64,000 bases of DNA from Escherichia coli (lineage in GTDB: Bacteria > Pseudomonadota > Gammaproteobacteria > Enterobacterales > Enterobacteriaceae). Of the stretch, positions 62,426 through 64,000 are shown in pieces. Position 1 is the first letter of the stretch; every line of letters begins with the position of its first letter. The notes under the pieces are model-generated. The model ran no database searches and was not told where the DNA came from. It saw nothing but the letters and a program-made list of their open reading frames with translations. The position numbers and the translations under genes were made by a program. Location of the stretch: NCBI RefSeq assembly GCF_003334335.1, contig NZ_QOWQ01000012.1. One strand, 5' to 3'.

Positions 62426-64000
62426 ATGAGCGGAAAACCAGCGGCGCGTCAGGGAGATATGACTCAGTATGGCGGTCCCATTGTCCAGGGTTCGGCAGGT
62501 GTAAGAATTGGCGCGCCCACCGGCGTGGCGTGCTCGGTGTGTCCGGGCGGGATGACTTCGGGCAACCCGGTAAATCCGCTGCTGGGGGCGAAGGTGCTGC
62601 CCGGCGAGACGGACCTTGCGCTGCCCGGCCCGCTGCCGTTCATTCTCTCCCGCACCTACAGCAGCTACCGGACGAAGACGCCTGCACCGGTGGGCGTTTT
62701 CGGCCCCGGCTGGAAAGCGCCTTCTGATATCCGCTTACAGCTACGTGATGACGGACTGATACTCAACGACAACGGCGGGCGGAGCATTCACTTTGAGCCG
62801 CTGCTGCCGGGGGAGGCGGTGTACAGCCGCAGTGAGTCAATGTGGCTGGTGCGCGGTGGTAAGGCAGCACAGCCGGACGGCCATACGCTGGCGCGGCTGT
62901 GGGGGGCGCTGCCGCCGGATATCCGGTTAAGCCCGCATCTTTACCTGGCGACCAACAGCGCACAGGGGCCGTGGTGGATACTGGGGTGGTCTGAGCGGGT
63001 GCCGGGTGCTGAGGACGTACTGCCAGCGCCGCTGCCGCCGTACCGGGTGCTTACCGGGATGGCGGACCGCTTCGGGCGGACGCTGACGTACCGGCGTGAG
63101 GCCGCCGGTGACCTGGCCGGGGAAATCACCGGCGTGACGGACGGTGCCGGGCGGGAGTTCCGTCTGGTGCTGACCACGCAGGCGCAGCGTGCGGAAGAGG
63201 CCCGCACCTCTTCGCTATCTTCTTCTGACAGTTCCCGCCCTCTCTCAGCCTCAGCGTTCCCCGACACACTGCCCGGTACCGAATACGGCCCCGACAGGGG
63301 TATCCGCCTTTCGGCGGTGTGGCTGATGCACGACCCGGCATACCCGGAGAGCCTGCCCGCTGCGCCACTGGTGCGGTACACGTATACGGAAGCCGGTGAA
63401 CTGCTGGCGGTATATGACCGCAGCAATACGCAGGTGCGCGCTTTCACGTATGACGCGCAGCACCCGGGCCGGATGGTGGCGCACCGTTACGCGGGAAGGC
63501 CGGAGATGCGCTACCGCTACGACGATACGGGGCGGGTGGTGGAGCAACTGAACCCGGCAGGGTTAAGCTACCGCTATCTTTATGAGCAGGACCGCATCAC
63601 CGTCACCGACAGCCTGAACCGGCGTGAGGTGCTGCATACAGAAGGCGGGGCCGGGCTGAAACGGGTGGTGAAAAAAGAACTGGCGGACGGCAGCGTCACG
63701 CGCAGCGGGTATGACGCGGCAGGAAGGCTCACGGCGCAGACGGACGCGGCGGGACGGAGGACAGAGTACGGTCTGAATGTGGTGTCCGGCGATATCACGG
63801 ACATCACCACACCGGACGGGCGGGAGACGAAATTTTACTATAACGACGGGAACCAGCTGACGGCGGTGGTGTCCCCGGACGGGCTGGAGAGCCGCCGGGA
63901 ATATGATGAACCGGGCAGGCTGGTATCGGAGACATCGCGCAGCGGGGAGACAGTACGCTACCGCTACGATGACGCGCACAGTGAGTTACCGGCGACGACA
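62426..64000 (+). CDS. rhsD: Rhs-family polymorphic toxin core protein, N-terminal part (3'-partial; runs off the window)
   Basis: Frame open from ATG 62426 to 64000 (525 codons, no stop, so absent from the ORF track); MSGKPAARQGDMTQYGGPIVQGSAGVRIGAPTGVACSVCPGGMTSGNPVNPLLGAKVLPGETDLALPGPLPFILSRTYSSY... then YD-type repeats (RYRYDDTGR, YRYLYEQD); GC-rich with many antisense shadow ORFs. Confidence 0.9.
   Translation, partial: MSGKPAARQGDMTQYGGPIVQGSAGVRIGAPTGVACSVCPGGMTSGNPVNPLLGAKVLPGETDLALPGPLPFILSRTYSSYRTKTPAPVGVFGPGWKAPSDIRLQLRDDGLILNDNGGRSIHFEPLLPGEAVYSRSESMWLVRGGKAAQPDGHTLARLWGALPPDIRLSPHLYLATNSAQGPWWILGWSERVPGAEDVLPAPLPPYRVLTGMADRFGRTLTYRREAAGDLAGEITGVTDGAGREFRLVLTTQAQRAEEARTSSLSSSDSSRPLSASAFPDTLPGTEYGPDRGIRLSAVWLMHDPAYPESLPAAPLVRYTYTEAGELLAVYDRSNTQVRAFTYDAQHPGRMVAHRYAGRPEMRYRYDDTGRVVEQLNPAGLSYRYLYEQDRITVTDSLNRREVLHTEGGAGLKRVVKKELADGSVTRSGYDAAGRLTAQTDAAGRRTEYGLNVVSGDITDITTPDGRETKFYYNDGNQLTAVVSPDGLESRREYDEPGRLVSETSRSGETVRYRYDDAHSELPATT

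Follow-up and report, generated by a model that had tools for sequence, protein, structure and literature searches.

The Rhs-like end of a 64-kb Escherichia coli window: very probably the 5' third of the classical rhsD gene

The reading frame that runs off the end of the window, by which we mean the whole 64,000-nt stretch of Escherichia coli DNA analysed here, is with a probability of about 95% the beginning of rhsD, namely its 5' third. In the classical RhsD element, which is inserted between ybbP and selU/mnmH, rhsD is the core gene. Over positions 62426-64000 there are 0 nucleotide differences in 1575 nt compared to rhsD (b0497) of K-12 MG1655, and likewise 0 in 1575 nt compared to rhsD of strain ECCHD184. 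An earlier note, written from the sequence alone, had placed the beginning of an Rhs element at this end of the window and had found no previously undescribed system. Both statements stand: RefSeq also names the gene rhsD, and the sole accessory-looking stretch is the textbook RhsD element, so that there is no undescribed system at this site in the window. The feature is already known, with nothing new in it, rhsD being a K-12 gene described decades ago (PMC2935791). The worth of the check is therefore a negative one, namely that the stretch with accessory character turns out to be long known.

Results and Discussion

We begin with the reading frame itself. The stop codon of ybbP (TGA, 61994-61996) is followed by a very AT-rich spacer, after which a frame opens on the plus strand with the ATG at 62426-62428 and stays open up to position 64000, where the window ends. 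Its translation comprises 525 codons with 0 stops, the closest in-frame stop upstream of the ATG being at position 62399, and the other five frames contain 9-22 stops each across the same stretch. The GC content of the frame is 65.5% (GC3 75%, GC2 54%), to be compared with 28.4% for positions 62000-62425 and 52.4% for the remaining window. The long GC-rich frame open to 64000 and the AT-rich leader in front of it are thus as the earlier note had described them. The note had also pointed out that the list of open reading frames misses the gene for want of a stop before 64000, and this is indeed the reason, since the frame runs off the window end. The coordinates of the features discussed below are collected in Table 1.

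Table 1. Features of the RhsD element at the end of the window, with the basis of each assignment.
Feature	Positions	Strand	Basis
AT-rich leader, 28.4% GC, left end of the RhsD element	62000..62425	+	Composition; junction comparison
Terminator-like hairpin, 11-bp stem then GTTTAAATT	62010..62037	+	Consensus scan, function presumed; within element-specific DNA just past ybbP
'Promoter island' ybbP/rhsD (522099_304, U00096.2 coordinates)	~62041..62344		PMC3661553 Table 1, coordinates converted
Sigma-70 promoter-like site TTAATA-17-TGTAAT	62264..62292	+	RpoD genomic SELEX list, PMC3946193; unique exact match in the window
rhsD codons 1-525 of 1426 (Rhs core protein, cut by the window end)	62426..64000	+	K-12/ECCHD184 identity; RefSeq annotation
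PAAR-like N-terminal segment (GKPAARQGD...), residues 1-47	62426..62566	+	Weak PAAR similarity; corresponds to Tse5-NT preceding the shell
DUF6531, N-terminal plug of the Rhs cocoon, residues 46-123	62561..62794	+	Pfam E=1.9e-18; structural role from the Tse5 paper, PMC10684867
RHS/YD repeats, residues 320-518 (first part of the beta-cocoon wall)	63383..63979	+	Pfam RHS_repeat; PDB Rhs shells match ~290-518

The assignment to rhsD rests on position as well as on sequence, as ybbP lies directly upstream and the visible part of the gene is 100% identical at the nucleotide level. In RefSeq the gene is called "rhs element protein RhsD" and follows straight after ybbP in thousands of E. coli genomes. 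When positions 61500-64000 were compared by megablast to every complete E. coli genome in RefSeq, many strains showed 100% identity, and each of the 100% matches listed is annotated with an rhsD gene after ybbP. ECCHD184 is identical to the last 2.5 kb of the window, and the full-length RhsD proteins of K-12 and ECCHD184, of 1426 aa, are equal. The RhsD element of K-12 (rhsD-ybbC-ylbH-ybbD) thus has all 1575 visible nucleotides and the left neighbour ybbP in common with the window, and its leader is alike save for a single T. Nothing was found that contradicts the identification of the stretch as rhsD.

The whole 64-kb window aligns to K-12 positions 460835-524835 in a single collinear alignment with 99.975% identity, the differences being 15 substitutions (for example at 2327, 3078, 57803 and 61757) and one 1-nt indel. 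The K-12 genes across the aligned interval, from lon/hupB to ybbP, are all ordinary chromosomal or housekeeping genes. Relative to K-12, the rest of the window can therefore be called syntenic core genome, as had been stated before. The sole indel in the 64 kb is in the T-run at 62366-62373 of the rhsD leader, which lacks one T compared to K-12 MG1655 (K-12 523207; missing T at 62373); the version of the window is found exactly in many other strains.

Turning to the protein, the YD repeats of Rhs core proteins that had been read from the translation are recovered as five Pfam RHS_repeat matches with E<=0.001 (2e-7 to 1.3e-3) in residues 320-518 of the fragment. The Rhs shells of Tse5, RhsA, Tre23 and Tse15 in the PDB align to residues ~290-518, and Pfam DUF6531 matches residues 46-123 with E=1.9e-18. 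The closest solved structures are all type VI Rhs effectors, that is, Tse5, P. protegens RhsA, Photorhabdus Tre23, Salmonella bongori Rhs and Tse15, of which Tse5 is the best match (E=7.6e-52). We have also scored the full-length allele (ECCHD184/K-12), the first 525 aa of which are those of the window, against the NCBIfam model RHS_core NF041261, "RHS element core protein". It obtains 2787.7 bits, which is above the equivalog cut-off of 2000 bits, and it matches in addition YD_repeat_2x, Rhs_assc_core and, in six stretches, TIGR01643.

The N-terminus requires a more careful wording. The earlier note spoke of a PAAR-like N-terminus, and what can be retained of this is one PAAR-type motif in a segment of ~47 aa similar to Tse5-NT. 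A full PAAR domain is unsupported: Pfam PAAR_motif matches residues 3-20 with E=0.11, over model positions 52-69 of 70, that is, the final third, and in the solved PAAR proteins 9rce_c and 4jiv_D it is the C-terminal PAAR repeat to which residues 2-29 align (E=0.1-0.5). With a single motif and weak similarity, we do not count RhsD as a member of the PAAR domain family (PF05488). Since the one weak motif aligns to the last PAAR repeat, the segment resembles Tse5-NT, which is described as a 'PAAR-like' N-terminal fragment (PMC10684867).

The parallel to Tse5 (PA2684 of Pseudomonas aeruginosa, PDB 8cp6) extends further. The shell chain 8cp6_B begins with PVNPMLG, which is aligned to PVNPLLG starting at P48 of RhsD, so that the two proteins share a PAAR-like head of ~47 aa and a DUF6531 plug from PVNP(M/L)LG, as well as the same aspartyl-protease/DPxGL end at the C-terminus. 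As judged from the alignments, RhsD has the head-plus-plug layout of Tse5. Tse5 differs, however, in coming from another genus, in having a pore-forming tip, and in that its secretion by the H1-T6SS has been shown, whereas our search for secretion data on RhsD returned none.

The clade I rhs genes of E. coli other than rhsD, such as rhsA, rhsB, rhsC and rhsE, share its core architecture and the GC-rich core; they are located at other chromosomal positions and carry other tips. In the megablast search, the number of places per E. coli genome that match the stretch 61500-64000 has a median of 2 and reaches 8 at most. Hill's laboratory has placed rhsD and rhsE in a subfamily apart from rhsABCF (PMC2935791). 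More distant are the Tc toxin TcB/TcC cocoons and the teneurin YD shells, represented among the matches by YenC2, TccC3 and teneurin-like proteins. The YD-repeat cocoon and the Rhs-associated core end are found in these as well; they lack the PAAR-like head, and their delivery is a different one, by a TcA injector or at the eukaryotic cell surface.

It is important to point out that everything past codon 525 lies beyond the window and was read from K-12 and ECCHD184, the 5' ends of which are identical to the one at hand. In these alleles the core end motif is PLQQIDPMGL at residues 1249-1258, with TIGR03696 at 1181-1258; the downstream motif PxxxxDPxGL that had been predicted is thus present. 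It is followed by a tip of 168 aa that is assigned to DUF4329/Tox-JAB-2 (DUF4329 E=1.3e-37), and the gene next to rhsD, ybbC, matches Imm-NTF2-2 with E=6.8e-26. The expectation that a toxin tip and an immunity gene lie outside the window agrees with this. Beyond ybbC there is an orphan rhs core-end fragment, ylbH, and then ybbD; such debris of displaced tips is usual downstream of rhs loci (PMC2935791, PMC3150448). Residues D1232, D1254 and L1258 of RhsD align with D1141, D1164 and L1168 of Tse5, where the two aspartates are the aspartyl-protease residues and the leucine is the cleavage site (PMC10684867).

The combination of Tox-JAB-2, with a JAB fold and proposed to be a nuclease, and Imm-NTF2-2 is a pair in the catalogue of Zhang et al. 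2012 (PMC3482391). DUF4329 has been called an RNase domain by Ma et al. 2017, as cited in a later in-silico paper (PMC7216683). In the literature searched we found no functional study of RhsD tip toxicity or of protection by YbbC, and the only publication treating rhsD and ybbC together was a genome announcement.

We now consider the boundary of the element. Comparison with ATCC 25922 and AR434, both of which lack rhsD, places the start of the strain-variable element at window position 62000, 3 nt past the ybbP stop. Searching the complete RefSeq E. coli genomes with positions 61400-62600, the ybbP-leader-rhsD junction was found in 2876 of 5426 genomes, and in the remaining ones the homology ends at query positions ~600-607, corresponding to window 61999-62006. 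Roughly half of the complete E. coli genomes thus lack the element and go from ybbP straight to selU/mnmH. Because the homology breaks at 62000, the AT-rich leader including the hairpin belongs to the inserted element. A GC-rich core (65.5% vs 52.4%) inside a strain-variable insertion with a sharp junction at 62000 is also what is expected of a member of the Rhs family. There are no tRNA genes in the whole window, and therefore no tRNA-type integration site.

At a coverage of >=80%, 1855 genomes have the K-12 tip together with ybbC, compared to ~2850 with the junction, and thus tips at this or other loci vary between strains. Two insertions were observed in individual strains. In E54 an IS1 is annotated within the ybbP-rhsD stretch, and in 19SZHZ869Rt an IS1 in the rhsD tip/ybbC region splits rhsD, giving a separate 'DUF4329 domain-containing protein'.

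Sites without the element are not all alike. In ATCC 25922 only 140 bp, a REP sequence, separate ybbP from mnmH/selU. The empty rhsD site of AR434 (9815-9898 of the retrieved region) holds in its ybbP-mnmH spacer a small gene annotated as type I toxin DinQ (dinQ), flanked by two copies of AAACCGACTGTCATGTCGGTTTTTTTA. As ATCC 25922 has neither rhsD nor the dinQ insert, the ybbP-mnmH site has at least three states. In the retrieved region of ATCC 25922 (1-1049), moreover, ybbJ adjoins a gene annotated as 'hypothetical protein', a place taken by cueR/ybaT in K-12 and in the window. The DNA upstream of ybbJ thus also varies between strains in some lineages, though the window itself is not affected.

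Regarding the leader, the ybbP/rhsD spacer of K-12 is one of 78 published promoter islands, and is reported to be bound by H-NS in all the ChIP data sets examined and to be transcriptionally poor (PMC3661553). Genomic SELEX with the RpoD holoenzyme lists the site TTAATA-17-TGTAAT for rhsD with an H-NS-associated flag (PMC3946193). A generic promoter scan of positions 61900-62600 found 2 sites, to be compared with 1.8 expected from shuffles, that is, no excess, and a scan of the whole window at the Rfam gathering thresholds gave no RNA genes at 62000-62425. The position of the island was obtained from the K-12 alignment together with a shift of 776 nt between two rhsD starts, namely 523261 in v3 and the one in U00096.2, which we take to be 522485, so that the span in Table 1 is approximate. 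Most likely, rhsD in a K-12-like background is kept silent by H-NS on the AT-rich leader.

Proposed role

On the basis of what is known for the family, the following mechanism can be proposed. The YD repeats would form a closed cocoon around the C-terminal toxin, inside which an internal aspartyl protease would cut after PLQQIDPMGL, with a second cut probably taking place before P48. The PAAR-like head would mount RhsD on the VgrG spike of a type VI secretion system, and the tip, a predicted JAB-fold nuclease/RNase, would poison neighbours that lack YbbC, in line with the general toxin/immunity function of Rhs proteins (PMC3150448). The literature further suggests that silencing by H-NS would be exerted via the leader.

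In this scheme, type VI delivery is what we infer, as the PAAR similarity is weak (E ~0.1). No vgrG, hcp or chaperone genes were found in the 62 kb upstream of rhsD, where no linkage to vgrG, hcp or an adaptor marks the gene as a type VI effector. The absent linkage weakens the description of RhsD as a proven T6SS effector, and leaves unweakened the description of it as built like one. K-12 is not known to possess a type VI apparatus. This, taken together with the lack of vgrG in the 62 kb, means that the locus may be a stored or silent cassette. Its main roles may thus be to keep a toxin/immunity cassette in store and to provide a substrate for recombination.

A number of other explanations have to be weighed against the one given here. 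Stop codons are scarce in GC-rich DNA, and the stretch also contains antisense ORFs, the longest of 168 aa, so that the long frame could be thought of as a chance by-product of its GC richness rather than a real gene. However, for a sequence composed like the fragment, the probability of 525 codons without a stop is ~6e-7, the GC3 of 75% vs a GC2 of 54% suits the frame, and there are strong matches to DUF6531, the RHS repeats, RHS_core and solved Rhs structures. Composition statistics and homology together rule this option out, the chance left to it being practically nil. The antisense ORFs themselves are considered spurious, as they are unannotated in the RefSeq records inspected and are expected at 65% GC. 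Another option is that rhsD in the source genome is disrupted past the window or carries a tip other than that of K-12, in which case the K-12-based description of the tip and immunity gene would be inapplicable. Tips are exchangeable among clade I rhs loci (PMC2935791), in ~35% of the junction-bearing genomes the K-12 tip was not found at >=80% coverage, and the IS1 insertions of E54 and 19SZHZ869Rt are examples of disruption. Against this, the identity to K-12 is 99.975% across the 64 kb and complete in the rhsD part, the 100% matches listed carry an annotated rhsD, and ECCHD184 has exactly the K-12 protein. We consider this scenario quite unlikely.

The remaining alternative concerns not the identity of the gene but its use. 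In a K-12-like lineage without type VI secretion, rhsD might not be a delivered weapon; instead, the tip and ybbC could act as an intracellular toxin-antitoxin-like pair expressed from internal promoters, or only the immunity gene could matter. There is a precedent in Salmonella Typhimurium, in which rhs-CT/immunity is expressed from internal promoters at a level ~100-fold above that of the delivery part and behaves as a type II toxin-antitoxin system (PMC7043789). The H-NS-bound, poorly transcribed upstream region described above and the absence of vgrG from the window would both fit. However, no data of this kind were found for E. coli rhsD, and the intact frame of 1426 aa is kept in many strains, which points to selection acting on the delivery part as a whole. 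By our analysis, such a role would be unlikely. A more specific version, in which rhsD-ybbC in T6SS-less K-12-like strains has a T6SS-independent use, as an internal toxin-antitoxin-like module or by some other export route, with the H-NS-bound leader as the switch, can be put forward as a speculation that we regard as very unlikely to be correct. The identification of the stretch as the 5' third of rhsD is the reading that we prefer.

Other features of the window

Some features elsewhere in the window can be mentioned. Between ybaQ and copA, at 47747-47984, there are two overlapping copies of a 137-bp direct repeat that are 97.8% identical. They correspond to Rfam naRNA4 (REP-derived), matched at 47751-47828 and 47852-47929 on both strands, and a third copy of naRNA4 is located at 40613-40690. 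Known RNAs are found at their expected K-12 places, namely the 4.5S SRP RNA at 15622-15718, the dnaX frameshift element at 32522-32586 and the sroB/ChiX sRNA at 46370-46453.
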